DNA of 64,000 bases, from the IMG/VR virus record IMGVR_UViG_3300045988_102364. One strand, 5' to 3'. The number at the start of each line of letters is the position of its first letter. Positions within the stretch are counted from its first letter, which is position 1. The position numbers and the translations under genes were made by a program. The notes below the pieces were generated by a model that saw nothing but the letters and a program-made list of their open reading frames with translations, did no database searches and had not been told where the DNA came from. Source of the DNA: a virus. Below are positions 2,596 through 43,053 of the stretch, piece by piece.

Positions 2596-3601
2596 TTTCA
2601 GAAGATACGAAAACGTACCCCGGTTTCAACTTGACCGCAGGCCCGGAAGGAGCCGGCTGAAGCTAACCTGCCCGGCTTGCGGAAAAAGCCGGTGCCTCAC
2701 TCCTTATATTGATGTGGCAACAGGTCAGGTTGTTGGCAACGAGTTCGGAAGATGCGATCATGAACGGACTTGCGGTTACGATAAACGACCTACTGGTAAG
2801 GATGTAGGTGACAAAGATCTTTGGATTTCGGGAAACAAGTGTATAAGAGCTTATCGTCCTCCTGTAAATCCTGACGTTGTAAATTACATACCTTTTAGCG
2901 AGTTTGAGAGGACTGTGGTTCCAGACGACAGAAACACCGTATTTAGATTTTTATCGTCTCTATGGGGAAAAGAAAGGGTATCTGATGTATTCAGGAGGTA
3001 TCATGTCGGAACAATGGACTTATGGGGATGGAAAGGGTGTTGTATATTCTGGCAGATAGACAAAGATTTTGTATGTAGAACCGGCAAGATCATGGACTTT
3101 TATATAAAGACCGACAGCCAGGGGAATGAGATTGATGTAAAAAGAGTGAAGGAAAAAGACGGTGACAATGAGCGACCTCATGTCATGTTTTATCACTCGT
3201 TGCATGCAAGAGACTTCTTGTTTAGACAATGCCTGTTCGGAGAGCATCTTTTAAGCCAGTATCCGGATAAGGTAGTTAATTTGGTGGAGTCAGAGAAGAC
3301 GGCTATTATATGCGCCGTGAATAAACCGGATGAGTTATTTGTAGCTACCGGTGGGTTGCAGAACTTAAGACCGGAAGTGATAGATGTTTTAAAAGATAGA
3401 AAGACTGTAGCTTTTCCGGACAAAGGACAAGCATTTGACACATGGAGTAAAAAGATAGATGGGATGATGATGAAGTCAAGGATAAAAGTATCGGACTATC
3501 TTCAGAGTGTTGAGAATGTAGGGGACGGAGATGATGTGGCAGATTTGATAATTAATAACAAAGTAAAAGAGAAATATTATGAGCCTGGACGTTTATATTA
3601 A
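2588..3601 (+). CDS. putative DNA primase (Cys-rich Zn-binding N-terminus plus Toprim-like core)
   Basis: CPACGKSRC...CDHERTCGYD cysteine cluster; VVNLVESEKTAIICAV and VAFPDKGQAFD resemble Toprim E and D motifs; lies next to helicase genes. Confidence 0.35.
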   Translation: MLDFRRYENVPRFQLDRRPGRSRLKLTCPACGKSRCLTPYIDVATGQVVGNEFGRCDHERTCGYDKRPTGKDVGDKDLWISGNKCIRAYRPPVNPDVVNYIPFSEFERTVVPDDRNTVFRFLSSLWGKERVSDVFRRYHVGTMDLWGWKGCCIFWQIDKDFVCRTGKIMDFYIKTDSQGNEIDVKRVKEKDGDNERPHVMFYHSLHARDFLFRQCLFGEHLLSQYPDKVVNLVESEKTAIICAVNKPDELFVATGGLQNLRPEVIDVLKDRKTVAFPDKGQAFDTWSKKIDGMMMKSRIKVSDYLQSVENVGDGDDVADLIINNKVKEKYYEPGRLY

Positions 3602-4775: not shown

Positions 4776-5054
4776 ATGGGCAGATCAACAGAGTACTACA
4801 GGACTCATCCCGAAGCCAGGAAGAAAAAGGCTAAAAAGGACAAGGAGATAAATGCCAGACCGGAACAGAAAGCCAAACGCCGAGAGCTTGGTCGTAAAAA
4901 CTACGAAACGGACAAGAAGAAGGGTAAGGGCTGGAGAAAAGGAAAGGATTGTTCTCATACCAAGAACGGTCTTAGGTATAAATCAGTAAAAGCTAATAGG
5001 GGATCCAAATCGGATACAAAAGGTGACAAAAATGCACGAGGAGATAGCAAATAG
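4776..5054 (+). CDS. highly basic Lys/Arg-rich small protein (possible nucleic-acid binding)
   Basis: 92 aa, about 40% K/R, low complexity. Confidence 0.3.
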   Translation: MGRSTEYYRTHPEARKKKAKKDKEINARPEQKAKRRELGRKNYETDKKKGKGWRKGKDCSHTKNGLRYKSVKANRGSKSDTKGDKNARGDSK

Positions 5055-6156
5055 GATAGATATAAGAAGGATATTCAAGACCTCTAAACAGGTTATGGAA
5101 GAGGCGTATGAGAATATCTTGAAATACAGGCGGGGAGAGCTTATCCCCGCTAAAACCGGATACGATTATATTGATGAGGCTTTGCTTGGAGGTATTTTTC
5201 CTCAGCATGCTATTGCCATAGGAGCCCGCCCGTCTGTAGGTAAATCGTATGTGGCCCAAAAGATATTGGAAAATGTGATGAATCCGATGATTAACCCGCA
5301 AGCAGAAGATTATTTTCTTGTCAATTGCGAGTTCGAAATGAATCCTCAAGATCTTCTTCTTCGCAGAATGAGCCAGGATATGAAAAAACGGGCTCCTGAA
5401 ATATTAAGAAGGCAAGATTCTAATACAGTAGAAGAGATGAGGATGTTTGAAATCCTTCAAGGTGAAATCAGAAATAATATAATATACATCGATGCTCCGT
5501 GTACGGTAAAAGAGTTTGAGGCGGCTGTGTATCATATAGCGACCAAACACAAAGACAAACGTCTTATAATATTTAAAGTCGATCATATTGCTTTGATAAA
5601 AAGAATGGGATTGGATCCTAAGTCGGCTATAGATGATTTGGTGGCGGTTATGAACGAGGCTAAATTAGTATATAAAAACATATTTTTCCTCATCATATCC
5701 CAATTCAACAGAGAGATAGAAGGAAGGATAAAAAGCCCCCAAGAGCAGCCTCCCCGTCTTTCTGACTTTTATCAGTCTGATACGCTGGGTCAGTTATGTA
5801 CGTTAATGATAGGTTTGCATAATCCTCGTAGATACGGGCTGGATAAGTATATGATATTTGGGAAAGATTGGTATCAGACTCTTGATAGGTTTAAAACCGA
5901 AAACAAAACATCATTCAGGACAGCCGGACTGGTGTTTCATCATATACTGAAGGTAAGGCAAGTTAGTATGGAAGAGCTTACTAATACAATCCACCCAGAG
6001 ATCCTGCCGGGGCATGGATGGATGTACGGGGAGGGCGGGACGAAGTTCGTGAACCCCAACCAGCCGCCGACGCCGCCCAAGCTCTATACTGTGGAAGACG
6101 TTACGGACAATCAGGAACAAGAACAAGAGGTAAAGGAAGAACAGTCATTGTATTAA
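5023..6156 (+). CDS. DnaB-like replicative helicase / RecA-fold ATPase
   Basis: Walker A IAIGARPSVGKSY matches the DnaB-type GARPxMGKT; Walker B-like IIFKVDHIALI; 377 aa. Confidence 0.6.
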   Translation: MTKMHEEIANRIDIRRIFKTSKQVMEEAYENILKYRRGELIPAKTGYDYIDEALLGGIFPQHAIAIGARPSVGKSYVAQKILENVMNPMINPQAEDYFLVNCEFEMNPQDLLLRRMSQDMKKRAPEILRRQDSNTVEEMRMFEILQGEIRNNIIYIDAPCTVKEFEAAVYHIATKHKDKRLIIFKVDHIALIKRMGLDPKSAIDDLVAVMNEAKLVYKNIFFLIISQFNREIEGRIKSPQEQPPRLSDFYQSDTLGQLCTLMIGLHNPRRYGLDKYMIFGKDWYQTLDRFKTENKTSFRTAGLVFHHILKVRQVSMEELTNTIHPEILPGHGWMYGEGGTKFVNPNQPPTPPKLYTVEDVTDNQEQEQEVKEEQSLY

Positions 6157-6171
6157 AAAAAAATAAGAACC

Positions 6172-6774
6172 ATGAGACTAACAGTAGAAGAAAACGAATA
6201 CCTGATAAGTAAGTTCCTTTTGGTTCTTACTGAATTTGCAGGGGATGAAAGAGAGATGTTTTTAATCAACTCCATACATGATAAGGCGGTGGCGGATATG
6301 AATTATCGTCTTCCGTCTTTAATAAGCAGAGAACGCAAAAGACGAGTCATTGAGCTCCTTAAAGAAGGAACCAGAATAATCAAGGACTTTTCCGGCTATG
6401 CAGGTGATATGGGTATGATTAACGAATACGATCGTCTAAAGAAAGAAATAGGAACCGTCCAAGACCAGCTTGGTGACGTAGAAGGTCAACTTCGGGCAGC
6501 AGGAGAAGTTATTAAAAAAGAACTTGATATGATTGCTGACCGAATCAAAGAAGATCTTCTTGACCGAGAGCTGGCTAAAAGTAATGCCGAGGCCGAAAGA
6601 AAAGCCAAAGTGGATCCGAGATACGAAGTAGCTTTAGGTGATTACAAGGAGATGCTGGAAGTGATTTTTACAACCAGAAACAAGTATTCTACGGTAGATT
6701 CTGTACATGACGATCTTCGTCAGTCGGTGTCTACCGGTAGAAATTCGATTATCAAAGAAGGGTACAACAGTTAA
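6172..6774 (+). CDS. hypothetical coiled-coil protein
   Basis: 200 aa with charged heptad-like segments. Confidence 0.3.
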   Translation: MRLTVEENEYLISKFLLVLTEFAGDEREMFLINSIHDKAVADMNYRLPSLISRERKRRVIELLKEGTRIIKDFSGYAGDMGMINEYDRLKKEIGTVQDQLGDVEGQLRAAGEVIKKELDMIADRIKEDLLDRELAKSNAEAERKAKVDPRYEVALGDYKEMLEVIFTTRNKYSTVDSVHDDLRQSVSTGRNSIIKEGYNS

Positions 6775-12582: not shown

Positions 12583-13993
12583 ACTTAGACCTTACCAGAA
12601 AGAAGCAGTAGATGCCGGGCTTAAGTTTCTTACAGGAAGATCTAAAAAGCCTGGCATAATAGTAGCCCCATGCGGAGCGGGTAAGAGCCTTCTGATATCC
12701 AAGATAGCACATGAGATAAATAGACCAACGTTAGTATTGCAGCCATCAAAAGAAATTCTGGAGCAGAATTATGCTAAGGCTGTATCGTTTGGCTCCGAAC
12801 CTACTATATACTCTGCCTCATGTGGCGTAAAGGAATTATCGGCTATGACTTATGCTACACTTAAAAGCATAAAGAAAGACGTAGCAAGGTTGAAAGATAC
12901 AGGGATAGATACCTTATTGATAGACGAATGTCATTCAGGATATTCTCCTGAAGAAGGTTCTGAATTTATGGAGTTTATGAGCGAGTTTCCCGAGGCGAAG
13001 GTGCTGGGCTTCACCGCCACTCCCTGCCGCCTCAGAGCCTACAGTTCCATGCTGGAAGGAAACTATAGCAAACTTAATATGCTGACAAAAGACGAGCATA
13101 ACTTCTTCAAGAAGTTAGTTCATGTAATACAAATACAAGAGCTAACTTCTCAAGGTTTTTGGTGTCCACTTAAGTACGAACGATGGTCATTTGATGAATC
13201 GGCTCTGATGTTAAACAGTACCGGAGCCGAATATACCAACGAATCTATTAAAGAAAGCATCGTACGAAATGGCTTAAACAACTCTATCTACAAGCGTCTT
13301 CTTCAGCTTATGAACGAGCGTAAAGCCATTTTGGTTTGTATGGATTCTATCGAATCATGTAATAGAATATCAGAGTTTATGAATGCCAAAATGGGAGCCA
13401 TAACAGGTGTCGTAACATCGCTAACAACCAAAAAGAAAAGAGAGCAAATCATATCAGATTTCAAAGAAGGTAAGTTGAAGGTGGTTTTTAATTATTCAAC
13501 GCTTGCTACCGGATTTGATTTTCCTGAACTTGATTGTGTGATGTTTGGTCGACCGACTTTCTCATATTCAACGTATTACCAAATATTAGGCCGCGCCGTC
13601 CGCATCCATCCTGACAAGAAAGAGGCGCTGATTATTGATTGCTGCGACAACATGAGGCGTTTCGGTCGGATAGAAGACTTGACAATCGAGCAATTCCCTT
13701 CTAAGGGCTGGTGTATGTTTGCCGGCGATCAACTTCTGTCCAATATAAGGATGGGTGATATTATTACCAAAGACGAGATCCTTCGCCGGGCGGCCTCACT
13801 TAAATCTGTGAATGGAGATGGTAGGAGAGAAGACGATCTTGACAGTATAATAATGTGGTTTGGAAAATATGAAGGAATTAGATTCAAGGACATACCGGTG
13901 TCGTATTTTAGGTTCTTGGCTGAGAATATGGCAGTAAAACCGGGAGATAGGAAAGAAAAGATTATCGAATATTATAATAGGATAAAGGCATGA
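12569..13993 (+). CDS. superfamily-2 DEAH-box DNA helicase
   Basis: Motif I GIIVAPCGAGKSL, motif II LIDECH, motif III GFTATPCR, motif VI ILGRAVRIHP; C-terminal FGKYEGIRFKDIP..YFRFL resembles a DUF3820-type tail. Confidence 0.8.
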   Translation: MMGFELRPYQKEAVDAGLKFLTGRSKKPGIIVAPCGAGKSLLISKIAHEINRPTLVLQPSKEILEQNYAKAVSFGSEPTIYSASCGVKELSAMTYATLKSIKKDVARLKDTGIDTLLIDECHSGYSPEEGSEFMEFMSEFPEAKVLGFTATPCRLRAYSSMLEGNYSKLNMLTKDEHNFFKKLVHVIQIQELTSQGFWCPLKYERWSFDESALMLNSTGAEYTNESIKESIVRNGLNNSIYKRLLQLMNERKAILVCMDSIESCNRISEFMNAKMGAITGVVTSLTTKKKREQIISDFKEGKLKVVFNYSTLATGFDFPELDCVMFGRPTFSYSTYYQILGRAVRIHPDKKEALIIDCCDNMRRFGRIEDLTIEQFPSKGWCMFAGDQLLSNIRMGDIITKDEILRRAASLKSVNGDGRREDDLDSIIMWFGKYEGIRFKDIPVSYFRFLAENMAVKPGDRKEKIIEYYNRIKA

Positions 13994-17599: not shown

Positions 17600-18305
17600 T
17601 TACGCGGCAAAAACCAGAAAAGCTTATTTGATAAACAATTTCGATAAGATTCTTAACAGTCTTAACACGCTTCATTCAACGGTTGAGACCATGACGTTGT
17701 TCGTAAACGACCAGGCTTATAATTACATTCTTAAGCTAAAGGAAGTAATTAAAACCAGTCCTATGTATAAGCACAATATCAAGCGTCTTTTAAATGACAT
17801 GGACAAAGAGATAAAGAGGTACAATGCTTCTATCTACTACATAAATAAAGAGCGTAGTGAGGTTATAGCTGATATAACACAAGCGATGGAAGATTGCCTC
17901 ATGCCATACATAGACGATCTGGCCGGCGCTATAAGGGCAGCCGTGTGGTCGAGGGGTGTGTCCGAGGAGCGGACGGAAGCGGCGGTACTGTCCCTAATCG
18001 TATCCTCCTTGGCCACGACATCAGGCAGACTTATCTCAGGTGGATATCAGATCATGAAAGAAATGGGTGGAGGTCAAGGTGGTAATCCATTTACGTTTAT
18101 GAGCATTGATAAGATAAGACACTTATCTACATCATTATCTGATGCTATTACCGGTGGAGAAATAGCTCTTGAAGAAAAAGAAGCCAATGACATAACTAAG
18201 GCAATGGATGTTTTTATTGAGAAAATGTCTGATTCGGATATTGTTGATAAGGTGATCAGCATACTCGAAGAGGCAGAATCTAAAAATAAGGAGGAGCGAT
18301 CGTGA
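17583..18305 (+). CDS. hypothetical protein
   Basis: 240-aa ORF; contains a GC3-rich codon patch at about 17905-18030. Confidence 0.3.
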   Translation: MNAMINYAAKTRKAYLINNFDKILNSLNTLHSTVETMTLFVNDQAYNYILKLKEVIKTSPMYKHNIKRLLNDMDKEIKRYNASIYYINKERSEVIADITQAMEDCLMPYIDDLAGAIRAAVWSRGVSEERTEAAVLSLIVSSLATTSGRLISGGYQIMKEMGGGQGGNPFTFMSIDKIRHLSTSLSDAITGGEIALEEKEANDITKAMDVFIEKMSDSDIVDKVISILEEAESKNKEERS

Positions 18306-18979: not shown

Positions 18980-21900
18980 CTATTTGTAACTAACGTCATC
19001 GTCTCCTTCCGAATCAGGAGTAGCGCCGATGAAGAACATCATTGACTTGTTGTTTGTCTGCTGCCACCAATTATAGGCGCGCGCTACGTCTTCCGGCGTC
19101 TTGATATTATACCATTGTTTGATAAACGTCTGTTTGGCGAGTTGCCTAAATAGCTTAGACTCTCCTTTGTATGTACCGGATGTTACTTTATCAAGTGAAT
19201 AATTCCTAAGATCGGTAAGATCCTTCAGCTTCCTTCCCATAACAAACGGGTCGTTAATGATATCTACAACGTTAAGCTCCATAATAAACGGCATCTGTGA
19301 AGCTATTTCGTTTATGGTTCTGAATCCAACGTAAGATCCAAATTGAGTAAGCCAACTTTCTTCGTTTTCATCATCATCACGCCATCCGGCAAGAAGCATG
19401 GATACGGCTTGCATGATAAGGAACGTGCCGGCATAGACACTGAGGCGTTTGAGATTAGTTTTTTCTACCTCATTCATATTGTCTTTATTTTCGTTCCAGG
19501 CATCTATGATGTTTTTCATACCAGACTCGGAAGCCAGGCTAAATGTTTTGGCTATCATATTCTTTAACGTAATTGACAACCCTTCCTCTTCTTGCATTGT
19601 TTGGAAATTGAAGCCACGTCTTTTCCACAGACGTTGAGCCGCCAGCACCAACCATCCTCGGTGGGCGGTCATGAACCTGGCTATCCAGTTGCGCGATGCG
19701 GCAGTTCGGTTTTCTTCATTCAAAGATCCGTTACATATCTGCGACAAGCTACGGACTTGATTCCTGGTTATAGCCATCTGGGTTTCAACTTCCTCAACAG
19801 TAACACCCGATCCTGGCTTTACAACCACCTTCCCATCCACGACGTCTACCATACTCCATAAAGTACGATCTTTTAATGCATTCCATTCTCTTTTTATGGT
19901 ACTCTGTTCTTTATTGCGTTCTTTTTCCATCTTGAAATCTTGGAACGTGTAGAACCGACCTTTGTAATAACGAACATTGTCCATAGTAGCAATCATAACC
20001 TGCGGATCAAGAGGGTAGTTCAGGATTTCCATAAAAGCATACATAGGTGAACGCATTAAGGTCCTGGCCACTCTATTGTATCCGGCACCATACATACGAT
20101 TTCGGATATTGAATATCCCCATTCTCTCACCTATGACATATAATTTGCTTTTCCTATCTATGTCTCCGGTTTCTGCTATACAAGATGGAGCAAGGCGTGA
20201 AAATTCAGCCGATGCGTATTTAAGGGAATCTTTACTTATATACTGTCCTACGGCAGATTCCATGATGAGGTTGATATGACCTGTTAAGGCGCCGGTAGCT
20301 GCCACAAACGGGGACAGTGCCAAGTTCATGACCGACATAAATCTTTCAACAGCCATCATAATTCTTGTAAGGTCTACCGTATATCCTCCGATGTTCACCG
20401 TAAGTTTTTTGGTGTTCATCCTAATGCCATAATAATGATCGTTGAAGAAGTCCCTGAACATCTGATATGCTTGGGTTGCTTCAGCCTTTTTACCACCTTC
20501 AAATTGTTTATTCAGTAACATCTGCTCCAGTCCTTGAGCGAGCTCTATAGACTTCTGCTTTTCGTTGTATAACGATGACTGCATCATAAGCATCGAATAA
20601 GAGTAGCCAAAATCGTGAGATACATCATCCTGGTTCTCCAATTCATATATGTAGTATTTAGGTATAGACCTAAGTCTGTCTTCCGGATCATACACTTCTC
20701 CTTGCCTGGTCTTACCATATAGAGAATCGTCTACTCTGTCCAGGCACAGATCTGATACAAAATTACGAACCGTATTTTTGAAGTTAATACCCAATCCTTC
20801 TATACGTTCTATGTCTTGTTTTGATATCTGTGGAATAGCATACAGGTTCGGGCTCTGCTCTTTGTATAGATCAAGGGATTGTCTTTTTATTTCCTTGAGT
20901 TTTTGAATCATATTCCACTGCTCTACATTTTTAGTAGCAACCTCATTACCGTCAACATCATACTTGATGCCAAAGTCATTGAAATACGATTCATCACGAT
21001 ACAGGCTTTTCTTAGGCATTCGATGACCATACCCATGATCTTTTACATAATCAGGATTACGGCCGCTATTTTCGGCTTCAGATTCAGCCACCCATGCCCT
21101 TGCAGGATCGAAAGAAAGGTACGATATATCCATGCCATAATCTTGGGTGGATGTACCGTTTTGTACGTCCTTAACCATCTGCGCCACATCTATCTCACCT
21201 CGACCGATTTTGTCGATCATAGCCGCATATCCAGTAGGCGCCATGCGTTTATAGTACGAAAAGACCTGGCTCCTGGCAAATTCATTAACAATAGCATTGG
21301 CCTCTTCTATGCCCGCTTTTATGTCAGCTTCTATACCCTCTTCTCTTGTATTATTTAAAAACAAGCTGGCCATCTTAGCATTAACAGCATTCCTAAAATC
21401 TCTACCGTCTAATTCTTTGCTTATACCAAGCTTTTCTGACAGGTAGTTGGTTTCAGATACGGTAAACAGATATCGGTTATCAGCAGCCTTAAACAGCTTA
21501 TCCCTTAAAGCCTGAATCCTTTTTGCTTTCTTCGCCGTAGTATGACGTTGTACGAACTTCCATTCCACTTCCTTGGAGTCAGCAAGAGCATTTAAATAAG
21601 ACTGATTTACTTCGTTTTCAGCCTTATTGCTTTTAGTAAGGTACTTATCAATATCTTCAAGACCCACCATCTTAGCATAATCTATCAAAATAGCGTAATC
21701 GGCTTCAATAGCTTCAGATGCGGCCCTAAAAGCATCTCTTTCGGATGAGGTAAATGTTGCTTCGTTAATTTCTCCGATATCAGCCACATCGCGATTGTTT
21801 CCGATTATTTCCTTGATAATAGCCTTATTTTTTTCTATATCTTTCACAATAGAATCCACGTCAGTCGCATCTCTATCGCTTGTCGTAGAACTAATGATAT

Positions 21901-24900
21901 CATGCGCCATTTTGAGATACGAAGCCTTGTTATTTGATTCGGTGCGCGCTGACTGTTCCGATTCTATATCATTCCAAAACCGATCGTTGAATGACAGGTG
22001 ACCACCCAACATAAGCGTTCTCAATGCAGCTTCCCCTCCTGATTCGCTCTGAATCGCTCTCAATTTTTGCAAAAACGATTCTGATACGGCATTAGTAACA
22101 TTATTTGATTCCTTTCTCCAAACTTCATTTATAGCTTGTATTTCTTTGGCCATCTTAAGTTGGTCGCCGGTTTTTTCCACTCTCCTGGTTCCTACATATA
22201 TGTATTCTGAAGCTGCTTCTTTACGTTGTTTACGAAGCAGTCCTTCTTCTTCGTAATTGCTGCTTTTAAAATAGGCAACTTCATCAAAATTACCACCGCT
22301 ATCAATAAAAGGCTGCCTCAGTATCCGTTTTTGCCTGGATAGAGCATTAAGGTATTCTTTGGTTGTTTGAGAAACTGGATGCCCTAATTCTTCTTCAGCC
22401 TTTTTGTATATGGATTCCATTCTTGTGGCATAACTTTCACTAAATTCCAGTTCCGAATTTTCAGCATCCCACTTTTCCATCTGTTCCGTATAGATCTTTT
22501 CCTGCTCGATGGTAAAAATATCGGTATTAACCCTATCAGACGATGGTTTGAATTTAGCGTTTTCAGTAACCGTATTTCCATCCTTGTCAACTACTTCTCT
22601 TTTAAATACGTAATTACGGTTATTGTCAACCACATCACCAATTTCTTCTTCTGATATCTCTATGTTCATGGCAGTCGCAAACGCTCGCATCTGCGCCAGC
22701 TTCTTATTACGATCGTATTTAGCCATATCAAGAGCACTACGAAGGTAATTAGAAGTTTTTCCGTCTACTTTCTGAAGCAGTTTTTCAAATTCAGATTTGT
22801 TAAAACCATGCTTTTTCGCATATGCCAGGAAATCGGATATGGCGGGCTGGGCATTCACCATCGCATTGTAATTGTCTTTGGCAATCATAGCTCCAAGAGC
22901 GTTATTGAACGGACTGGAAGAATGCTCTAATATACCAAACCACCTACTTATCCAAGAAACATCGTGTTGAACCTTGTCGAAAAATTCTTTTACTCTCTTT
23001 ACCTTATCTGCCGGCACATGAAGTTCGTTCATTAACTTATCAAGCAACGTACTTTCATCAAGGTCTTGTACTGATTTAATATCAGACTGAATACCATTGA
23101 TGTCGGCAATGACGGTGTTGATCCTATTTGTATAATCCTGCTTTTCACGTTCATCAAATTCGGTACTTCTGTTACGGATATATCCTCGAAGATCGTTCAT
23201 GATCGGAAGAACCTGATTGTTGATAATATCTACGTTCTTTCGATCATTGGTATTGAAGTGAAGCTTGCCGTCTTTGGTATCACCATGAAGGATGGTGTTC
23301 ACCACATTGCTTAAGTATCTGACCTGAGCTTCGGCTGTGGAGATCATGCTGTTCATGGCAGCCGCCATCTCATTCTTGTCTATTTCGGTCTCTACCTTAT
23401 TTATCTTATCTTCTATGGTCTTAAGCTGCGCAAGGGTCATAGACGTAGTTACAGCCCTATCAGAGCTTATCTGACGTAAGTCTCTTAATGTTTTTCTTAG
23501 TGATCTGATCTTAGACTCAAGAAACTTGTTCTTGTTCATAGAAGAAAGGGAGTATAATGTAAAGTCATTATCCTTTAACAGAGAGGTGTCAAATCCTTTA
23601 TCTATGTCAGTAATGGCAAGATCACGAATGTTTTTAATAACGTTATTCAAATCTTGTCTTTGGGTTGATAAAGCTGATTTAAGCCAGCTTACGATTCCAG
23701 AGAAAAGCTGCCGGACGCGCCCCAGGAAGGAGGTGGGCTCTACCGGCGCCTGTGCTGTGCCGGCCTGCATCTCCCTGGCGAGGATCTTTCCAAGAATTTC
23801 TCTCCTAACAGCATTATCAAGCTCAGCTCCTTCATACGCTTTACCGTATGTATTATAATACTGACCTGCATACTGGTTCCACTCTTCCGTACCTTCTACA
23901 TCTTGCAGAACAGCCTCAACAGCATTCTGATCTCTGTATGCCTCTACAAGAAAGTGGGCTGTTTCTTCTACTAAATCAGATAAAGTAGCATCTTCACCAA
24001 CTGCTATTACATTATTGGCAATATCCGCCAATGCCTTAGCAGAAGGTTCGTGCCCGTATTTGGTTTGGTACTTCTCTATATAATCGGTCATACCTATGAC
24101 ACTAACGCCAAGAGTTTTCAGTATCTCGACAATAGAATTTCGTTGATCACGTTCCTGCCTGCTATAATCTGATACGATCTTAGCTTTAGTATCAGCATAA
24201 AGATCGTTGTCTTCTAATATGAATGAAACTACAAGCGCATCAAAATGATCGTACTTGGCGTCCAATTCATTGTATCTTCCTGACTTAAGATCGTTCTTTA
24301 TCTGCTCTTTGCTAACCCTTTCCGTTCCTCCGGTGGCGAGCCTCATAGTTACATTACTATTATCCAACGAGCTTATGGTTATCATACCTTGGTCGTTCAT
24401 GGAAACATCGGAACCAAAATGATTACGGAGCTCGGTGTATGATAAGGCTGAATTGAAAAGTCTAATTTGTCCTGTATGACCTTCTCCTGTAAGATAATAG
24501 CTTCTTGTTTCCGGATCGAATATCTTAGATCCTGACAAAAGACCTTTCTTTATAAGGTAGTTAATTATACCACCTTTTGTTGATAAAGAAGTAGAAGCAG
24601 AAGCGGTCATGACCGGTATAAAAGATTTGGGATTATTAAGAACATACTTTCCAGCCTTGTAAGTAATGTCTGCCACGCCATCCACGGTAGATTCTTGAAC
24701 GGTGCCTGATAAGAATCCTATTCTAATATCATTTCCGCCAGAGCGAAGAGCTTCTCCGTAATCTTCAAATAATTGACTACGATCGTTCATGAAAAACAAA
24801 CGAGGCTCTCCGGTCTGATACGTTACACCCACAGGATTAGAATCTGTCTGTGGTAGCTCTTCTGGGCTAAATATCTTAAGACCGTCTTTTATAACCATAT

Positions 24901-31775: not shown

Positions 31776-32840
31776 TCAGACAGCAGCGTTGTTATTGCAA
31801 CATCCGTTGTTACATCCACATCCGTTATTGCAGTAACCTCCTCCGAATACCTGTCCCCAAGAATAAGCCTGGTAAGGAGAACAAGAGGGGTAGGCTGGGA
31901 CGGCCGTCGGGCGTAATTGACCAACGATATTCTGGGTTTGTTGCTGAGATAATGCCGAAGCTGTCAAAGCCGCTTTTTCTTCACGAAGTTGAGCAATAGT
32001 GTTCTGCATCTCCCTCATTTCCAACTGACAGAATTTGTCGTTGATCATTTGCGTTTGCGCGTCAATCTTTGCCGACAACACATTGAAATGACCAGTCTCC
32101 TGCTCGCGGTTGTTTGTCAAACCCTGGTTGATATTGTTTTGCAGAATGTTGGTCTGCTCCAGCGTTCTCAGCTGATTGTCGAATCCTTGCTGAGTAATCA
32201 TTCCCTGAGTCTGGCAAGTGCTTTGATTGATCAACGAACTCAGATTGCAGCAGCAAGAGCTGATTTGATTTCCTATTTCACAACCTTGTTGTTGAACTGC
32301 GTTGATAACAGCCTGAGAAGTCATACCTACCTGACCAGCTACTTTATCAATAGCACCCTGTACGTTGCAGATAGCGTTCTGAAGTTGAGTAGTAGAACAG
32401 TTCAAAGCAGAAGCGATCTGATCTATGGCACTACGATTACCTTGAATTGCCTGCATCAAAAGTTCACGACCGTAATCGTTATTCAACTGAGCCGGCAAAC
32501 CATTGGCGCAACAATCACCACCATTTCCAAAACCGTTACCGAAGCCGCGTCCACCCCACAGCCAGAACAAAACAATTATCCAGAGCCACCAACCGTTAGC
32601 CCCACCGAAACCGTCCTGGTTGTTACGACCGTTCATCAAAGCCGCTACCAGATTCGGATCCATTTTATTACCACCTATCAAATTAGCAAACATGCCGGGA
32701 ATCATTGAAAGAAGACCGTTAGTGGCTGCACCACCACCGTTAGCCCCGGCTCCATCTAAAAGGACGATTTTATCACCACCCATAATTTTATAGTATTTAA
32801 TTGTTAAACATACGTGCATGAAGCACGTAACAAAGATCAT
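31776..32840 (-). CDS. Gly-rich / Gln-Asn-rich coiled-coil protein with Cys-rich C-terminus
   Basis: N-terminal GAGANGGGAATNG, central Q/N-rich heptads, C-terminal YCNNGCGCNNGCCNNN. Confidence 0.4.
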   Translation of the reverse strand: MIFVTCFMHVCLTIKYYKIMGGDKIVLLDGAGANGGGAATNGLLSMIPGMFANLIGGNKMDPNLVAALMNGRNNQDGFGGANGWWLWIIVLFWLWGGRGFGNGFGNGGDCCANGLPAQLNNDYGRELLMQAIQGNRSAIDQIASALNCSTTQLQNAICNVQGAIDKVAGQVGMTSQAVINAVQQQGCEIGNQISSCCCNLSSLINQSTCQTQGMITQQGFDNQLRTLEQTNILQNNINQGLTNNREQETGHFNVLSAKIDAQTQMINDKFCQLEMREMQNTIAQLREEKAALTASALSQQQTQNIVGQLRPTAVPAYPSCSPYQAYSWGQVFGGGYCNNGCGCNNGCCNNNAAV

Positions 32841-36418: not shown

Positions 36419-39400
36419 TCCTTATTTAACTCATTTATCGAATCCGAATTATCAGAACCTTCTACAAGATTCTTATTCCTATCTATCTCTTCCTGGCTCA
36501 TGTTACTTATCATATTTTGTATTTTTCTACCAGATTGAAATAAAGAACGGATGAATGCGCTGGAACTTATCTTAACTCCAAGATCCGGTTTTGCCCTAAA
36601 CGCTTCACCGGTACTGATATTATACAAATCATACACACCTGAGTTCATATAGAATTTATATATCCAGTTTCCACCAGCTTTTTTGTACCCTAATTTGGTT
36701 AACTCGACTACACTCATACCAAATTTAATGCCATTACGACCCATTATCTTCTCCGGTATAGGTTCTACCTTAGCCGGAACAGATGTATATGCTTCATCAC
36801 CGCCGTACAGGAAATAAGGGGTTGTCACCCTTGATATGTGAGTAAGCGGTTCTTCGGATATACGAGGCTCGTCTTTCGCAGCCTTAGATTCTTTCCTTGG
36901 ATTGGATATTCTAATAAAAGGATCGTATGTCAAAAAGGTTAAGCCGTATTCTACTTTATAACCTGACACGCCGTCAAGATCCCTTATAGCCTTAGTCGTA
37001 TGTGAGTGGTTGATGGTGTCTATCCCGTACCTTGATTCCATATCGGTCATAATACTATTAACCTCATCTCCCTCTACATAAACCTCTTCTCCTTCCGGGA
37101 TAGAGGTTATGCCGGCAGCCCTTCTAAGTAGCCATAAAGTAACTTCAGCAATGTCAGAGAACTTATCTCCGTTCTTCCTATAGTTATCTACTCTTCCTTC
37201 TTCAGATCCAGGTAATTCGACATTTCTTTCAACTTCGACATTTGTTCTGGATTGTCCTTTGCCTTCTCCATCTCCCTTTTTATCGCCATCTTCCTCAGCG
37301 CGTACTGCACCGCCTTCTGCACTTCCTTCTTTTCCATCATTTAAAATATTATCTGATTCTGACTCTATAGACTCCACGACAGCATCATACTCTGGTATGC
37401 CGCTAAGGAAATCTGCTACGTTATTCAAAAACTCTATTTTTTCCTCGTTTGTCATATCAAGGCTTTCCACGGGCTCCCATATGGCAGGCAAGTTGTTTGA
37501 TTTTATTGCAGTAGAAACATCTTCTATAGTTTGGTTGTCCACCGTAGGCAAAACTTTAGAAACCAAACTATTGATATCAGATTCCATTTTTTCTACTTCC
37601 TCTTTTGTGCCATATTCTTTTAGGGTATCCATGCCATTGACTCTAAGGGAATAATTTAAAGCCTTACTTGGAACAAAATTAATATATTTCAAAAAGTTTT
37701 TCAACTCTGATATAATTTGTTCGTCAGATCTTGGCCCAACATAATCAACCACCACCTGATCTGTTTGAGAACGAAGCCAAGAAACGTATTCTTCTAAAGT
37801 TTTACCACCTTTACTGGAAGGAGTGGATATTTTATCACCTACTGTTCCTTTAGGTTCTAATCCCATTTCCTCCTTAAGACTTTTAGGATTACCTCTCTCA
37901 CGAAGAAACCTCAAATCACCTCCTACAATCTTTCTTGCTATAAAATCAAAAATATTAGCATAAGACGGCAATCCTTCTTTTTCTATATGAGATTCTATTT
38001 CGTTTAACATAAGAGAGAAGTTTTTTCTGGAGGTGCGCTTCTTGCCATGTAAGGACTGCGTAGCTTGTGCCGCAGGAGCCGGCTGGGCTGGTGGCGCCGG
38101 CCGAGTCCCCCGGACAGCTCCTTCCTCTGGCATTTCCTCTTCATAAACATCCACATCTTCCTTGGAAGTAACGGTCTTACCATCATCAGAGAAAGGGAGA
38201 TCATCTTCTATAAGTGATTTAGGTCTGGAAGATGATTTACCAAACTGAATCCTGATCTTAGGAGCAACAAACATTTCACCTTCGAAATCTATTCCAGATT
38301 CTACTTCAGACGTCACAATGTCTTTCACGCTCCTACTTTCATCTTCTACCCACTTAACAACATCAGGAACTGTAGATAATTTTTCTATAGCCTCACGAGC
38401 TTTTCTAAGACCTGAAATAGGATTCAAATACGATACTTGATACGAAGCTGGATCAAGACCTAACTTGGTTAGATACGCATTAAGATCTTGTATGTCATCT
38501 TGACCCATCTGTAACAATTCAGAGTCACCGGATTCAAGCAGCATATCTATAAAAGAAATCCATTTCTTTCCTTCCTCTGATTCCACAGAACGTAGACTAA
38601 CCGGGAAAAGATAATTAAGACCGTTTTTGCCTTTGATGACAACTACCGGAACTCTTACATTTTTGTAATTATTCCCCTTGTCATTTAATATAGAATAAGC
38701 AAATGGGAAGCCTGTATATTTAGAGCCGTTCTTAAGCACGACTTTGCCATTTAAGACATACCCCACATCAGATACTTTTTCAGCTCCTTTTTCGGTAATA
38801 GGGAGATTTTCTACCTGACCATATCCTTGACCGTTTACTCTCATGTTAAACACCGGTCTTCCAGGAAGGGTCTGGGCAACAACATGCGTGCCGACGTTGA
38901 TGGTAGCCGACCGGCCGGCATCCTTCTTCCACTTGTTAAAAGCCGTTCTTCTTATTTTACTTATACCATCTATGCCACCCGTGTCAGCTTTAACAACAGA
39001 AACGAATCTGTTTCCACTCATGACCTTGATAACCATATTGGATACCAGCTTATTTTCAGCAGATTCTATTCTTTTTTTATCACCGGACTGAACAGCATCA
39101 TTGTATTCGGCAAAAAGAGACTGATTATAGGTATCATTTGCATCTATCTCAAGATTAACCTTATCTCCTTTCTTCAAAGAAGATAATGCTTCCTGATCTA
39201 TTTTATCTACCTCATTCTCTCCGAACCCAACACCTGTTCTGTACGGAACCAACTCATCTGAATCAAGACGCTTATAAACCAAAGAATATGAATTACCCAC
39301 GTCCTGAATAGACACATCTGTGTAACGGTTGAGAACACGAGCCGATTCTTTGTCTATAGACCATCTCGCATGATAAGGAAGTTCTATCACGGTAGCTGTT

Positions 39401-42400
39401 TCTCCACCTATGTTAAGGAAATACCTTTTAGTCCCATTAGCGTTCGTTTCAGAACTTATTTGAATAGGAACCAATGATTTTATTGAAGATATAAATTTAT
39501 CGGCTCTAAGACCTGCAATTTCATACCTTTCATTGCCGTCATTGGAGATTCTTCTTACCATCAACGTCTCTGGATTCTGGGCACTATCTATGTTGGCTCC
39601 AAGCGTATTATCGGATTCATCTAACTCATTTACAAGAGAATCTATATTGGTATCATCCTCCCCAAAATTACTTAACGTAGATTCGGAAATACGACCTTTA
39701 TCAATAATCCTGTTTTGTTCGATATAAGGAAGGAGATCTGTGATGTTTCCAACCTGGCCAAGATCTTCTATGGTAAATACCGAATCAGCAAGCTTATCTT
39801 CGTCAACTTTCTCCCCTTTGTCCCGTCTGTTCATTATATCCACATACGAAGAAATAGCATCATCAAGTTCCTGCCTTTGATCTGGTTCCAAATTTGATTT
39901 AGCCATATCAATAATAGCTTTATTTTCCTCATATACTGATCTCGGACTTGTAAGTCTGTCAGCCTTTTCAGATAATGATTTTATGAGATTAATAGGGCTG
40001 TCACCTAAAGACGACACATAATCATCAAAATCTTGTTTGTATTTATCATACACATCTTTTTCTCTCGCAGTAAGAAGATCAGCATTCCCTGTATATAATT
40101 TATCAATTATAGACTGCCTTACTACCGGAACCATAATAGGATTATCCATAGCAGCCTCATAATCTTCATCTGATACAGACTCCGTAAGCGGTGACTCTTT
40201 TATATTATCTTCCGCTTCCTTCATCCTATCTTCTCTTACTTTATCAAGAGCATGCATAAATGCTTTGATAGTCCAAGCTTCGTCTTCCGAAATCTTACCT
40301 TCTAACACAGCTTGATCCACTACCTCATCAGTGTCATATTCACCGACTTTATTAGGCTCTGCAAAATCAGGAACCTTGTCATCCCCCTTATAAGGAGTAG
40401 ACCATAGAGAAGACAGCGCTTTTGAAAATCCCCTGTTTTCCTCAGCTAAGAATCTTTTATCAAGCATCTTAGACAAGAAGTTATTCATATTCCTATAGTC
40501 CATCAAACTCCTACGGTATTCATTTACCAAGGATCTCATGGCTTTGTCTTTGGCTGTAAACTTCTTTTCCTGTCTTGATTTTACATTAAAATAATCATCA
40601 AAAGCCACAAGAGTATCATAGGCTTCTATTACATCTTGTGAACTTATGGGAGAAAGAGGAGATGATAAAACAGATTCGGTTTTACTTACCAACTCTTCTA
40701 TCGAAAACTCTTTTCCTATTAACGTTGATAACTCAGACAACGAATTATTGTAATTGGTTCTAAGATCTTCCAATTCTTTGGTTTTTCGTTGTATGGACTC
40801 AGCTTGTGGGTCTTTTCCATCTACGTTACGAGGACGGGTGGCAAGATCTTCTATTTCGGATTCAAGTTCTTCTATTCTTGACCGTATGCCACGAATATCC
40901 ATAGCCCGCTCCCTCGCCCTGCCCGACAGCCGGGAAAACGTACTTAGCGCATCTGCCACGCGAGGCTGTCCTGAAAGCGTTTCTATGACAGAAGCTATGT
41001 CTTTCATTCTTGATTCTGATTGAAGACCAAGGAAGGCATTACGAGCCACGTATTTTCTAAATTCAATCTTAGAGTCATCACCTATAAGATCTTCAGCAAA
41101 ACTCTGGGCAGATCTGAAATCAGAAAGACGATTGTTATAATTATCAATAATAGAATCCTTGTATTTCTTTGCCTCTTCCAAAGACATTCCATTAGCTTCG
41201 GCTATTTCTGAAATAGGCATCATATCAATCATCTGCCTGAAATTTTCAGCCGAATCCTCTAAGGTTCCCATTTGGTTGTCAATAGACATCTTTTCAAACA
41301 TAGCATCATCAAGCTCCTTGCCGGTCATAGACTGAGCATCGGAACGAACTTGAGGCCCTAAACTCATTGACTTTTTCAACGTATTCAAAGCCGCCGTATT
41401 AAGATTAGAAGATGCTTTGTTATATTCATTTACTTGCCTTTCCAGCAATATCCGACTATTACTATACTCTTTCACTCCAAAGAAGCCTTCCCTCATACCG
41501 AACAAAGAACCGATAATAGCACCGATTCCTATCTCAGTCCACCCTTCTTTAGATGTATATTGCTTTTTAAATCCTTCAGAAATAGCATCAAGAACATCGA
41601 CGGCTCCGTTCATAGCCACATTGTCATATCTTGACTTAACATATTCTTCAGCCGTATTCTGTACAGCACCTTGAGACCCTTCTTCCCATAAGCCTTCGGA
41701 CACAGGTCTTTTCATGATATTGAAAACATTACCCGCTATCTTCTGCCCTATATTGGGATTAGTTATTTTAATAGCCATCTCTCCCGGCTTCGCAACTTCC
41801 GTCCCTAATCCAAATAAATGCTTATTAAGTTTCTTTTCCAACCCTGGTATAGCCTTGCCTCCTAACCCTATATACTTGCCAAAAAGAAGCCAGTTAGATA
41901 ATCCTACTATACCCATATTGGCAGCAAATATTGCACTACCTACATCAGCATTAGAATTACGAAAAACAGCCATTTCCTCTGCATTGGGATCACGACCATA
42001 AATCTTACGATAATAATCCTTGAAATCAGACTCGGATTGCTTCATAAAAGAATTTGCTTCAACCGATGACTCGAATCCGGCACTGGTAGCCAACAACGTC
42101 ATGGTCTTAGCCGCCTCCCCTACATTTCTTCCGGTAGCAACTCCTTTTCTTACATAGTCGTTAAACACACCTTTAAGGCTTCCTATGCCCCTATTGGCAG
42201 CTTGCCTTGCTGCTAACTTAGCTCCGATTCTTCCACCTAATTTAGCACCTATATTGCCCAATGATCCAACTCCAAGTCCTCCGGTCATGTACGCTGATAT
42301 CATGGCTCCTACGGTAAAAGACATACCATTACCAAGGACATCATTCCATAAGAAATTACCGGTATCCTTAAAAAGCTTCTGACCAAAATTATAATCTTCT

Positions 42401-43053
42401 ACCTCTTTCTTGTAATAATGAGGAAGAAGCATGTCTATTTGCTGGTCAAGATCACCTACAAACTTATCCATGTTAGTGTTTAACGCAGCTTTATAACTTC
42501 CCTCAGATGCCATATTGATAAGTTTGTCAGGCAATGACACAACTCCTTGTGCACCGTACAATGCAGACTTTAAAGCGAATTTGCCTACACCATTCCAAAA
42601 CTTACTCCATCCGCTCTGTCTCCTGGCATAATAATCCTCATTGTTTATACCCGGAATATAGTTGGGATATTTTGTACGCCATACCCCATCATTACCCATC
42701 TGATGACTTTCACGGATACTTACCTTTGGTCCATAGGGATTAAGAGGCGGCGGGGCAGGTGTAGCCCCCCTGTAGCTGTTACGAGCCAGTGCCTCCGAGT
42801 AGCTGTTGCTTATCTCCTTGGCTATATACGGTTCTTCGTATTCGGCAGCAGCTATCCTTGATGCGTAATCCGGAAATTTAGGTTGGGCATACACACCTTC
42901 ACCAGGCATATAATTAGGAACCAGAGGCGTTGTCGTCTCTGGTAGTGTAGCCGGAGTATAATTCTCTTCTTCGGCTAATTTTCTTTGCCTTGCCACATCT
43001 TCGTAAGTGGTTTTAGCAGCAGGATTATATCTATCTATATTATTGTCAGCCAT
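36412..43053 (-). CDS. giant virion protein (2213 aa) with Gly-zipper hydrophobic segments and a Pro/Ala-rich linker
   Basis: GLGVGSLGNIGAKLGGRIGAKLAARQAANRGIGSLKG-type segments; PAPPAQPAPAAQATQ linker; overlaps the downstream gene by 8 nt. Confidence 0.5.
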   Translation of the reverse strand: MADNNIDRYNPAAKTTYEDVARQRKLAEEENYTPATLPETTTPLVPNYMPGEGVYAQPKFPDYASRIAAAEYEEPYIAKEISNSYSEALARNSYRGATPAPPPLNPYGPKVSIRESHQMGNDGVWRTKYPNYIPGINNEDYYARRQSGWSKFWNGVGKFALKSALYGAQGVVSLPDKLINMASEGSYKAALNTNMDKFVGDLDQQIDMLLPHYYKKEVEDYNFGQKLFKDTGNFLWNDVLGNGMSFTVGAMISAYMTGGLGVGSLGNIGAKLGGRIGAKLAARQAANRGIGSLKGVFNDYVRKGVATGRNVGEAAKTMTLLATSAGFESSVEANSFMKQSESDFKDYYRKIYGRDPNAEEMAVFRNSNADVGSAIFAANMGIVGLSNWLLFGKYIGLGGKAIPGLEKKLNKHLFGLGTEVAKPGEMAIKITNPNIGQKIAGNVFNIMKRPVSEGLWEEGSQGAVQNTAEEYVKSRYDNVAMNGAVDVLDAISEGFKKQYTSKEGWTEIGIGAIIGSLFGMREGFFGVKEYSNSRILLERQVNEYNKASSNLNTAALNTLKKSMSLGPQVRSDAQSMTGKELDDAMFEKMSIDNQMGTLEDSAENFRQMIDMMPISEIAEANGMSLEEAKKYKDSIIDNYNNRLSDFRSAQSFAEDLIGDDSKIEFRKYVARNAFLGLQSESRMKDIASVIETLSGQPRVADALSTFSRLSGRARERAMDIRGIRSRIEELESEIEDLATRPRNVDGKDPQAESIQRKTKELEDLRTNYNNSLSELSTLIGKEFSIEELVSKTESVLSSPLSPISSQDVIEAYDTLVAFDDYFNVKSRQEKKFTAKDKAMRSLVNEYRRSLMDYRNMNNFLSKMLDKRFLAEENRGFSKALSSLWSTPYKGDDKVPDFAEPNKVGEYDTDEVVDQAVLEGKISEDEAWTIKAFMHALDKVREDRMKEAEDNIKESPLTESVSDEDYEAAMDNPIMVPVVRQSIIDKLYTGNADLLTAREKDVYDKYKQDFDDYVSSLGDSPINLIKSLSEKADRLTSPRSVYEENKAIIDMAKSNLEPDQRQELDDAISSYVDIMNRRDKGEKVDEDKLADSVFTIEDLGQVGNITDLLPYIEQNRIIDKGRISESTLSNFGEDDTNIDSLVNELDESDNTLGANIDSAQNPETLMVRRISNDGNERYEIAGLRADKFISSIKSLVPIQISSETNANGTKRYFLNIGGETATVIELPYHARWSIDKESARVLNRYTDVSIQDVGNSYSLVYKRLDSDELVPYRTGVGFGENEVDKIDQEALSSLKKGDKVNLEIDANDTYNQSLFAEYNDAVQSGDKKRIESAENKLVSNMVIKVMSGNRFVSVVKADTGGIDGISKIRRTAFNKWKKDAGRSATINVGTHVVAQTLPGRPVFNMRVNGQGYGQVENLPITEKGAEKVSDVGYVLNGKVVLKNGSKYTGFPFAYSILNDKGNNYKNVRVPVVVIKGKNGLNYLFPVSLRSVESEEGKKWISFIDMLLESGDSELLQMGQDDIQDLNAYLTKLGLDPASYQVSYLNPISGLRKAREAIEKLSTVPDVVKWVEDESRSVKDIVTSEVESGIDFEGEMFVAPKIRIQFGKSSSRPKSLIEDDLPFSDDGKTVTSKEDVDVYEEEMPEEGAVRGTRPAPPAQPAPAAQATQSLHGKKRTSRKNFSLMLNEIESHIEKEGLPSYANIFDFIARKIVGGDLRFLRERGNPKSLKEEMGLEPKGTVGDKISTPSSKGGKTLEEYVSWLRSQTDQVVVDYVGPRSDEQIISELKNFLKYINFVPSKALNYSLRVNGMDTLKEYGTKEEVEKMESDINSLVSKVLPTVDNQTIEDVSTAIKSNNLPAIWEPVESLDMTNEEKIEFLNNVADFLSGIPEYDAVVESIESESDNILNDGKEGSAEGGAVRAEEDGDKKGDGEGKGQSRTNVEVERNVELPGSEEGRVDNYRKNGDKFSDIAEVTLWLLRRAAGITSIPEGEEVYVEGDEVNSIMTDMESRYGIDTINHSHTTKAIRDLDGVSGYKVEYGLTFLTYDPFIRISNPRKESKAAKDEPRISEEPLTHISRVTTPYFLYGGDEAYTSVPAKVEPIPEKIMGRNGIKFGMSVVELTKLGYKKAGGNWIYKFYMNSGVYDLYNISTGEAFRAKPDLGVKISSSAFIRSLFQSGRKIQNMISNMSQEEIDRNKNLVEGSDNSDSINELNKEC

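Follow-up and report, generated by a model that had tools for sequence, protein, structure and literature searches.

The stretch of viral DNA considered here, IMG/VR record IMGVR_UViG_3300045988_102364, was analyzed as a window of 64 kb with 39% GC, which is ~93-97% identical to csAssE-Sib (OR575929.1), a human gut phage of 151 kb, except where a few blocks are replaced or diverged. Replication genes lie on the plus strand in the left third and encode a zinc-ribbon primase, a DnaB-like helicase, a PD-(D/E)XK exonuclease, an SF2 helicase and a C5-methyltransferase, and the remainder is occupied on the minus strand by structural genes, three of them with products exceeding 2100 amino acids (aa), plus a Ro60-like gene. 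A/T-ending codons are favoured in nearly all codon families, with a GC fraction at third codon positions (GC3) of 0.368 over 20,198 codons. The subject of this work is a set of short patches, about 50-120 nt long and always intragenic, in which the codons of these AT-rich genes end predominantly in G or C. A preliminary description of the DNA, made from the sequence alone, had listed 14 such regions, chief among them positions 5990-6110 in the DnaB-like helicase gene.

This chief region was confirmed in the frame of the helicase, where 30 of the 37 informative codons end in G or C versus 12.9 predicted from the amino acids (Poisson-binomial P = 7e-9); it includes an unbroken run of 22 such codons and has an abrupt 3' edge. 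All genes were scanned for maximal-scoring GC3-rich segments, each codon being scored relative to the chance that its amino acid is written with a G/C ending, and the outcome was compared with a null obtained by shuffling synonymous codons within genes (500 permutations), with the protein sequence and the codon counts of each gene kept fixed and five doubtful open reading frames (ORFs) removed. Thirteen segments reached a score of at least 8 (null mean 1.83, null maximum 7), seven a score of at least 10 (null mean 0.29) and three a score of at least 15 (null mean 0.00), the top three being 5989-6084, which ranks first, 58347-58436 and 23708-23788; the counts observed at these thresholds, and at a score of at least 12, were matched by none of the 500 permutations. 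Hence, GC3 in the main patches lies above a null conditioned on amino acid composition, and the third-position bias goes beyond their content in Gly, Ala, Pro and Arg, as had been proposed.

The excess of G/C-ending codons is thus statistically real in about a dozen patches, of 25-40 codons, even if one may ask how far chance runs, together with peptides rich in Gly, Ala, Pro and Arg, could produce the same picture with nothing special behind it. Such an explanation accounts for five of the 14 regions originally listed, which are not distinguishable from their amino acid composition, the other nine being upheld either strongly (five) or moderately (four). It also covers the short segments of 7-13 codons scoring 6-8, which are expected by chance in numbers (null mean 13.3 at a score of at least 6) and some of which, for instance 6949-6972, differ between strains. 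Moreover, the GC content at neighbouring first and second positions (GC12) affects GC3 slightly (0.43 vs 0.34 at GC12 of at least 0.6), but this effect is far too small to yield GC3 values of 0.8-0.9, and the idea that the patches represent the extreme end of a gradual relation between GC12 and GC3 was consequently rejected. With the counts of high-scoring segments unreached in the permutations and the patches kept across the species, chance is hardly credible as a general explanation and is ruled out for the ~10 strongest patches.

The fate of the patches in the population was followed in ~240 IMG/VR loci (within L003-L332) of 93-98% identity, which together cover the whole window. All 16 patches that we have catalogued (table 1) are present in every aligned strain (30-80 strains per patch), with a minimum GC3 of 0.57-0.81 for 15 of them and of 0.46 for the stretch 32001-32183. 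For the contrast in diversity, the patches were delimited anew on the consensus of the population, so that the window itself did not determine their ascertainment. Third sites at which G or C is the major allele have a nucleotide diversity (pi) of 0.097 in patches versus 0.167 elsewhere in the same genes, about 0.6x (p<0.0002; 9 of 12 genes), and third sites with A or T as the major allele have the same value, 0.107, inside and outside. When variants are counted per site by direction (S for G/C, W for A/T), S>W changes amount to 0.35 in patches and 0.54 outside, W>S changes to 0.39 and 0.31, S<->S changes to 0.030 and 0.027, and W<->W changes to 0.076 and 0.082, respectively. Such a pattern marks a force that favours G/C as such; being direction-specific, the loss of variants fits neither a sequence-specific element nor a one-off import that decays neutrally.

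The best supported conclusion is that the patches are products, formed in place, of a local, persistent and composition-level bias towards G/C at synonymous sites. Accordingly worded as a model, a local force for G/C would override the AT-biased codon usage within the phage lineage itself, would act on base composition and not on given codons, sequence or fold, and would still be operating in the present population.

Table 1. GC3-rich patches found by the scan and regions of the preliminary description. Codons are given as G/C-ending/informative codons vs the number expected; P values for the regions are pointwise, without correction for hand-picked windows.
Position	Strand	Class and location	Codons	Scan score	Strains and GC3	Region of the preliminary description
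5989..6084	+	top patch; C-terminal conserved motif IHPEILPGHGWMYGEGGTKFVNPNQPPTPPKL, DnaB-like helicase gene 5023-6156	27/30 vs 10.3	19.7	76/76 strains, 0.78-0.91	5990-6110, strong, P = 7e-9
58347..58436	-	patch; 2254-aa muzzle-like structural gene 57213-63977 (IKERTSPGQAEMGTGGLFASRPLEYNTTDL)	26/29 vs 10.4	18.0	79 strains, minimum 0.77	58360-58430, strong, P = 1e-6
23708..23788	-	patch; 2148-aa structural gene 18980-25426	23/26 vs 9.6	15.0	49 strains, minimum 0.81	23700-23790, strong, P = 1e-7
54283..54360	-	patch; Ro60-like gene 53698-55332, just upstream of codons for ...DHSGSV	21/26 vs 8.6	12.9	80 strains, minimum 0.73	absent (scan only)
17895..18017	+	patch; hypothetical gene 17583-18305	28/39 vs 13.0	11.6	73 strains, minimum 0.71	17905-18030, strong, P = 9e-6
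12980..13054	+	patch; SF2 helicase motif III (VLGFTATPCR), gene 12569-13993	20/24 vs 8.7	11.3	79 strains, minimum 0.72	12990-13040, strong, P = 4e-5
32001..32183	-	long diffuse stretch, least convincing member; gene 31776-32840 (overall GC3 0.456)	40/58 vs 21.4	9.9	median only 0.57	
38887..38937	-	patch; 2213-aa structural gene 36412-43053	14/16 vs 5.6	9.4	77 strains, median 0.94	absent (scan only)
46546..46614	-	patch; 951-aa structural gene 46105-48960	18/23 vs 7.9	9.4	77 strains, median 0.78	46540-46640, moderate, P = 2e-3
40906..40935	-	short patch; 2213-aa structural gene	10/10 vs 3.5	8.5	55 strains, minimum 0.80	40900-40960, moderate, P = 3e-3
61611..61697	-	weaker patch; muzzle-like gene	20/28 vs 9.2	8.4	only 30 strains align, minimum 0.66	absent (scan only)
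42766..42822	-	patch; 2213-aa structural gene	15/19 vs 6.4	8.2	54 strains, minimum 0.74	absent (scan only)
63345..63410	-	weaker patch; muzzle-like gene	16/21 vs 7.1	8.0	30 strains, minimum 0.64	absent (scan only)
13589..13657	+	weaker patch; SF2 helicase motif VI (GRAVRIHPDK)	16/22 vs 7.0	7.7	0.57-0.78	13590-13640, moderate, P = 1e-2
2633..2698	+	weaker patch; primase zinc-ribbon cysteines, gene 2588-3601	17/22 vs 8.0	7.6	0.64-0.86	2630-2700, moderate, P = 3e-4
19640..19696	-	patch; near C-terminus of 2148-aa structural gene	13/16 vs 5.5	7.6	47 strains, minimum 0.68	absent (scan only)
					 	38030-38110, not distinguishable from composition, P = 0.012
						11540-11610, not distinguishable from composition, P = 0.02
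	-	ORF 29329-29556				29380-29470, not distinguishable from composition, P = 0.07
		Walker A	3/6			5219-5238, not distinguishable from composition, P = 0.32
		methyltransferase PC motif	2/6			16087-16107, not distinguishable from composition, P = 0.68

The choice of codons in the patches bears on a conventional explanation, translational selection, by which optimal codons would be used for accuracy or speed at critical residues. Several patches do lie over conserved motifs (SF2 motifs III and VI, the zinc ribbon of the primase, the core of the muzzle-like protein), and the C-ending two-fold codons AAC, GAC, TAC and TTC dominate in them. However, the patches are enriched in all G/C-ending codons, including GGG, CCC, CGG, CGC, CTC and GCG that capsid genes avoid, with G and C endings equally common (160 vs 164), and they are depleted in GGT, CGT, GCT and CCT, the T-ending codons favoured by the capsid module (in the relative csAssE-Sib, the four-fold codons of these genes include GCT at 0.60, GGT at 0.58, CGT at 0.53 and CCT at 0.55). 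The enrichment of codons in patches is uncorrelated with that in capsid genes (r = -0.01), which contradicts the translational explanation and indicates that the driver acts on base composition, not on decoding. Furthermore, GC3 shows no association with amino acid invariance across four lineages in the replication module (Mantel-Haenszel odds ratio 1.03-1.14, not significant, amino acid controlled), and relatives use AT-ending codons for the same residues. We therefore consider translational selection extremely unlikely. The related claim that the patches often sit over catalytic motifs survives as an anecdote for SF2 motifs III and VI and the zinc cluster of the primase; it does not extend to a general link between GC3 and invariance, and two of its examples, Walker A and the PC motif, drop out.

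A different proposal would see in each patch a specific cis-acting element within the coding region, which might be a structured RNA, a site bound by a protein or a small RNA. It could draw upon the lower variability of GC-major third sites inside the patches, as well as upon cores of identical codons common to diverged relatives; for example, the DnaB patch has a GC-rich core that L170 (81% protein identity, 34% GC) also possesses, most of its codons being identical (TGG ATG TAC GGx GAG GGx GGG ACG AAG TTC GTG). Yet the folding energy of the three top patches shows no excess stability over dinucleotide shuffles (z = -0.09, +0.40 and +1.19), no k-mers or motif are common to the patches beyond chance and no repeat family emerges among them, and no Rfam family is found over the patches at the gathering threshold, at which only a tRNA is reported. 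Changes at AT sites, like G<->C transversions, occur as often in the patches as outside them; since a sequence-specific element would tolerate neither, such an element is largely refuted, and we regard the proposal as very unlikely. The preliminary description had offered selection on local nucleic acid structure as one cause of the patches, an idea that fails with fold z values around 0 in the three top patches and with the depletion confined to GC-to-AT variants. What the data support is a force on base composition and not on structure, near in spirit to that idea. In essence, the strong patches can be explained neither by a specific structure nor by translational optimisation or chance.

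Other candidates for the nature of the patches were rejected on more direct grounds. They are not insertions, because homologues carry the same residues: the DnaB patch aligns residue for residue with a motif kept in 17 homologues (IYPEIMPGxGxxYGEGG...). Overlapping genes were dismissed with only 36-71 aa alternative-frame ORFs over the two top patches; the patches do open spurious ORFs of this kind, for instance 6018-6212 (+) and 5911-6126 (-), as had been anticipated. The SF2 helicase gene raised the question of an intein or homing footprint left by co-conversion. The window has the intein-free allele, and alleles of the same species (exteins 97-99% identical) carry one of two inteins, either one of 344 aa with a homing-endonuclease domain in SF2 motif I (APCG|C...HN|SGKS) or one of ~316 aa in SF2 motif II (LIDE|C...GN|CHSGY); at the motif-I site, the +1 position is Ala in the window and Ser in the intein-bearing alleles. 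The insertion sites, at residues 36/37 and 120/121, do not coincide with the patches, which span residues 138-162 and 341-363; the motif-II intein site is separated by 14 AT-ending codons from the patch of motif III, 17 codons downstream. Finally, the patches are not targets of a diversity-generating retroelement (DGR), in that each matches only its own orthologue in csAssE-Sib (141 of 151 kb searched) and that third-position A and T are both depleted, not A alone.

In evolutionary terms, the distribution of the patches among related phages creates a puzzle: how can nearly the same peptide be encoded by G/C-ending codons in one lineage and by ordinary codons in the next? The closest distinct lineage, L083 (~82% helicase identity), has GC3 0.35 where the window has 1.00 in one bin, and the DnaB patch is absent from L083, L085, L087, L171, L172 and L435; more generally, relatives at ~80% protein identity are mostly without patches or have only their core. 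The same peptide being written with ordinary AT-ending codons in relatives, the bias lies at the level of nucleotides and not of proteins. For the muzzle patch, the closest relative L413 (GC3 0.26) is without the full patch, and the core RPLEYNTTDL is GC3-rich in all four other lineages, L413-L416. L087 (GC3 0.29) has patches of its own at other positions, with scores of 30, 19 and 18, with peptides that group normally and with synonymous sites no closer to any sampled lineage; the strongest of them (amino acid identity 0.53-0.60 inside vs 0.50-0.53 outside) bears the same marks of an origin in place as the DnaB patch. L083 shows no patch excess in the same scan. Judging from these sequences, the comparison supports patch formation as a family-wide process that would shift in position.

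A possible way out of the puzzle is the one that the preliminary description had put forward, namely that the patches are mosaic conversion tracts from a GC-richer relative, necessarily one outside our sample, which brought foreign synonymous codons and left the protein unchanged. Relatives with higher GC3 do exist (range 0.52-0.63; L414 0.63, L172 0.57, L416 0.56, L085 0.54), the population is highly recombinogenic and visibly mosaic with respect to csAssE-Sib, and the patches have the length and the sharp edges of conversion tracts. Over the latter half of the muzzle patch, agreement with the window is 48/54 nt for the GC-rich L414 and 37/54 for the closer L413 (hand count), but this likeness to L414 is largely expected from identical amino acids and common GC-ending usage. 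Against import, the donor tract would need a GC3 of ~0.9-1.0, far above the average of any relative, and the peptides of the patches group with the nearest relative. In particular, the DnaB patch peptide is 27/32 identical to that of L083 (whole gene ~82%), hence phylogenetically in place, which makes a distant GC-rich donor unlikely. No donor was found. Among the window, L083, L085 and L087, no windows of raised synonymous identity appeared (maximum 16/20 on a background of 0.5-0.6, with few relatives sampled), and alignments of the exonuclease and of a replication factor revealed no sampled lineage with raised synonymous identity over the patches; recent exchange among the sampled lineages was rejected on this basis. 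Likewise, a bacterial or host donor was rejected with 0 exact matches to 26-mers of two patches in 185,579 bacterial and archaeal species genomes. Searches for intermediate lineages returned only the window's own species in an IMG/VR scan with P0008 and, with a pattern of 24 specified bases in a metagenome collection, a single lineage, L435, without the patch; a pattern of 14 specified bases gave 18 matches in IMG/VR, within the estimated chance number. No strain is without the patch or has an AT-version allele, and a one-off import does not predict the continued depletion of S>W variants. Import is therefore poorly sustained in the form originally proposed, and we judge it rather improbable also from an unsampled source.

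Which process, then, could maintain a compositional bias over such short tracts? The population offers a hint. Linkage disequilibrium (LD) between common single-nucleotide polymorphisms (SNPs) decays to r2 ~0.15 within 200-350 nt, and most pairs of nearby SNPs show all four gametes, a rapid decay indicating that recombination is very frequent in this gut phage species. A first comparison of LD gave an r2 of 0.12 across patches versus 0.29, a gap of which positional controls removed the most, and in an earlier test with five patches, r2 gave p = 0.27 and the four-gamete fraction p = 0.013. With 14 patches and length-matched controls, the four-gamete fraction is higher across patches (mean percentile 0.25, z = -3.3), and additional matching of the controls by distance and allele frequency leaves this excess in place (mean percentile 0.26, z = -3.1), with 13 of the 14 patches positive. 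Somewhat more recombination at the patches is suggested by the four-gamete tests, though not by r2.

Given the four-gamete signal and a recombination rate that is very high, we favour GC-biased gene conversion (gBGC) associated with recombination as the mechanism behind the in-place bias, a tentative choice to which we assign a probability of about 0.4. Heteroduplex tracts would form preferentially at certain small sites in this often-recombining population, and their mismatches would be resolved towards G:C, so that the sites would drift to high GC3 with the protein unchanged; both recombination as the cause and the bias of the repair are steps that we infer. In bacteria, gBGC has been described as a recombination-linked force favouring GC that is independent of selection on codon usage and can oppose optimal A/U-ending codons, a description matching our results on polymorphism and codon choice (Lassalle et al. 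2015, PMC4450053).

This evidence needs to be qualified, since several points weigh against such a mechanism. The r2 values are below the control mean in 12 of the 14 patches without reaching significance (z = -1.1; matched z = -0.8), and the four-gamete result derives from 14 patches with SNP pairs that are not independent. The contrast in diversity may be inflated by ascertainment of GC runs, a bias which the consensus definition reduces and does not remove. A determinant of the hot spots was sought, and no motif common to the patches was found. The sharp edges, as in the run of 22 codons followed by background, are more abrupt than a decaying conversion gradient. To our knowledge, nothing would pin a recombination hot spot to ~90 nt, and mismatch repair biased towards G:C is, for this phage or its host, an inferred step. 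Lastly, the same study states that gBGC and selection for GC content leave identical signatures in polymorphism (PMC4450053), with the consequence that, on this account, the present data do not separate the two.

Selection for high local GC as such is, indeed, the alternative that comes nearest to the results, although we hold it to be unlikely. The patches would then be elements defined by composition only, for instance stable blocks of DNA or mRNA, which, with no need of a defined sequence or fold, might shield the transcript or slow down a polymerase, a ribosome or the packaging/ejection motor. The depletion of S>W variants with unchanged S<->S and W<->W variants would be expected here as under gBGC; the persistence of the patches in all strains, their sharp boundaries and the partial retention of GC-rich cores in lineages with otherwise saturated synonymous sites also agree with selection. 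Translation could be slowed by the many patch codons that the genome uses rarely and the capsid genes avoid. On the other hand, the patches show no regular placement, either inside genes or with respect to their ends, and most relatives encode the same peptide without a patch, so any function would be lineage-specific and dispensable; L083 is without any patch excess, and no such function is established for phages as a matter of general knowledge. A bolder proposition, which we consider doubtful, is that the patches are genuine landmarks, either fixed gBGC recombination hot spots of ~90 nt in conserved motifs or selected 'GC clamp' elements. In the former case, diverged co-infecting phages would exchange modules at the patches and biased repair would raise their GC, so that they would be, if true, the first viral gBGC hot spots to be described at such a fine scale; in the latter, selection would keep the patches to pause the polymerase, the ribosome or the machinery of DNA translocation.

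Several observations on neighbouring features of the window can be added. Around the top patch (5989-6160), some public gene calls (P0001, P0005) fuse the helicase with the downstream ORF, and one of them frameshifts in the G-rich patch; these long DnaB variants, which had been considered as possible intein carriers, are actually read-through or frameshift fusions, in which the G runs and the A9 run preceding the next gene were probably misassembled or miscalled. The C5-methyltransferase region 15860-17060 (+) consists of two ORFs of 114 and 270 aa, both with TTG starts, where csAssE-Sib has one coding sequence of 1128 nt; the interval of 16-17 kb can be aligned in only ~15/80 strains, indicating that it is variable or accessory. 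CCGG occurs 229 times in the window, versus 64 for GGCC, 60 for GCGC and 29 for CGCG, or ~2.5x the expectation from base composition (hand estimate); a tie with cytosine methylation or repair of the very-short-patch type would be speculation. Between 29100 and 30800 lie small minus-strand ORFs, and the longer ORFs on the plus strand (e.g. 30211-30765, GC3 0.60) are antisense artefacts; the GC maximum of the window, 45.6%, is in the interval of 30-32 kb.

At the other end of the window, the muzzle-like gene 57213-63977 (-), with its product of 2254 aa, is mosaic with respect to csAssE-Sib, identity being 91.6% over 57210-59321, 66% over 59698-61004 and 84% over 62513-64000. A mosaic junction with this phage is also found at 2567, ~70 nt away from the patch 2633-2698. 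The Ro60-like gene 53698-55332 (-), annotated as 'Ro sixty-related protein' in csAssE-Sib, adjoins a tRNA-Lys(UUU) gene, and the sequence DHSGSV beside its patch is possibly the MIDAS motif DxSxS of a vWA domain. Next to it there is a full-length match to the Rfam family YrlA (Y RNA-like) that remains below threshold (31.2 bits vs a gathering cutoff of 69, E = 1.4e-4) and overlaps a weak tRNA-like match. The three features, at 53698-55332, 55449-55522 and 55669-55779 (all -), look like a phage-borne Ro60/Y-RNA module as far as their sequences can tell, and an ORF of 57 aa at 55537-55710 is probably spurious. Beyond the window, the segments 45751-47816 and 58986-65413 of OR575929.1 contain a DGR (a variable region and a template repeat of 96 nt each, an initiation of mutagenic homing sequence and a reverse transcriptase) targeting a tail-fibre gene, together with two TnpB genes near the part of that record that matches the right end of the window.

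What would follow from these results depends on the process behind the patches. If recombination drives them, they would provide a marker, readable from the sequence, of the sites at which gut phages exchange DNA, and biased gene conversion would shape viral genomes at a scale below that of the gene, with bearing on the reading of codon usage, on composition-based prediction of hosts and on tests for selection acting on phage genes. Should selection maintain the patches instead, they would form an unusual class of elements in coding sequences, defined by composition alone. In either case, the G-rich runs seem to give rise to frameshifts in the gene calls of assemblies, and annotators should expect such calls, as well as spurious alternative-frame ORFs, at the patches. 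A full-text literature search found no description of GC3 tracts of this kind in phages, and we know of none. The patches are a solid, if moderate, observation in evolutionary genomics and not a new molecular system.

It remains to compare the patches with systems already known. Rickettsia palindromic elements and the GC clusters of yeast mitochondria are likewise short GC-rich islands in genes of AT-rich genomes, as is generally known, but the patches are non-inserted, single-copy and non-palindromic. With the variable region of a DGR, such as the one accompanied by a reverse transcriptase in the genome of the relative csAssE-Sib, the top patch has in common a length of 96 nt; unlike such regions, the patches are without a template copy and not hypervariable. 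Synonymous constraint and cis-acting RNA elements embedded in ORFs, again from general knowledge, show locally reduced synonymous variation as the patches do, but here only GC-to-AT changes are lost, with no excess folding and no motif, so that the constraint is on composition. Clusters of rare codons, generally proposed to slow translation to the benefit of co-translational folding, similarly bring together codons that the genome uses seldom and that highly expressed genes avoid; the patches differ in being defined purely by G/C endings and in having positions mostly unconserved among ~80%-identical homologues. The mosaic recombination of phages over short segments, also general knowledge, resembles our case in its conversion-length tracts and its highly recombining mosaic population, and segments coding for conserved peptides are where diverged genomes keep enough identity to recombine; the patches depart from it with no donor, no jump in protein or synonymous divergence, no presence/absence polymorphism and a composition beyond that of any known relative.

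The closest likeness is to the gBGC of bacteria (Lassalle et al. 2015, PMC4450053) and of eukaryotic hot spots, which likewise is a synonymous bias favouring GC that mimics selection for GC. Whereas the bacterial process is described at the scale of whole genes, and with a link to recombination that in this phage is only suggestive, the patches are discrete, sharp-edged tracts of ~50-120 nt inside phage genes. In agreement with gBGC, their bias does not depend on the preference for optimal A/T-ending codons and in this phage runs against it, and they are lineage-specific and shift position between relatives, with a hint of more recombination. Heterogeneity of GC3 within genes and gBGC-like forces are known already; the patches are a variant at a finer scale, with discrete tracts of ~50-120 nt with GC3 of 0.8-1.0 in AT-rich phage genes, conserved within the species and marked by direction-specific polymorphism.

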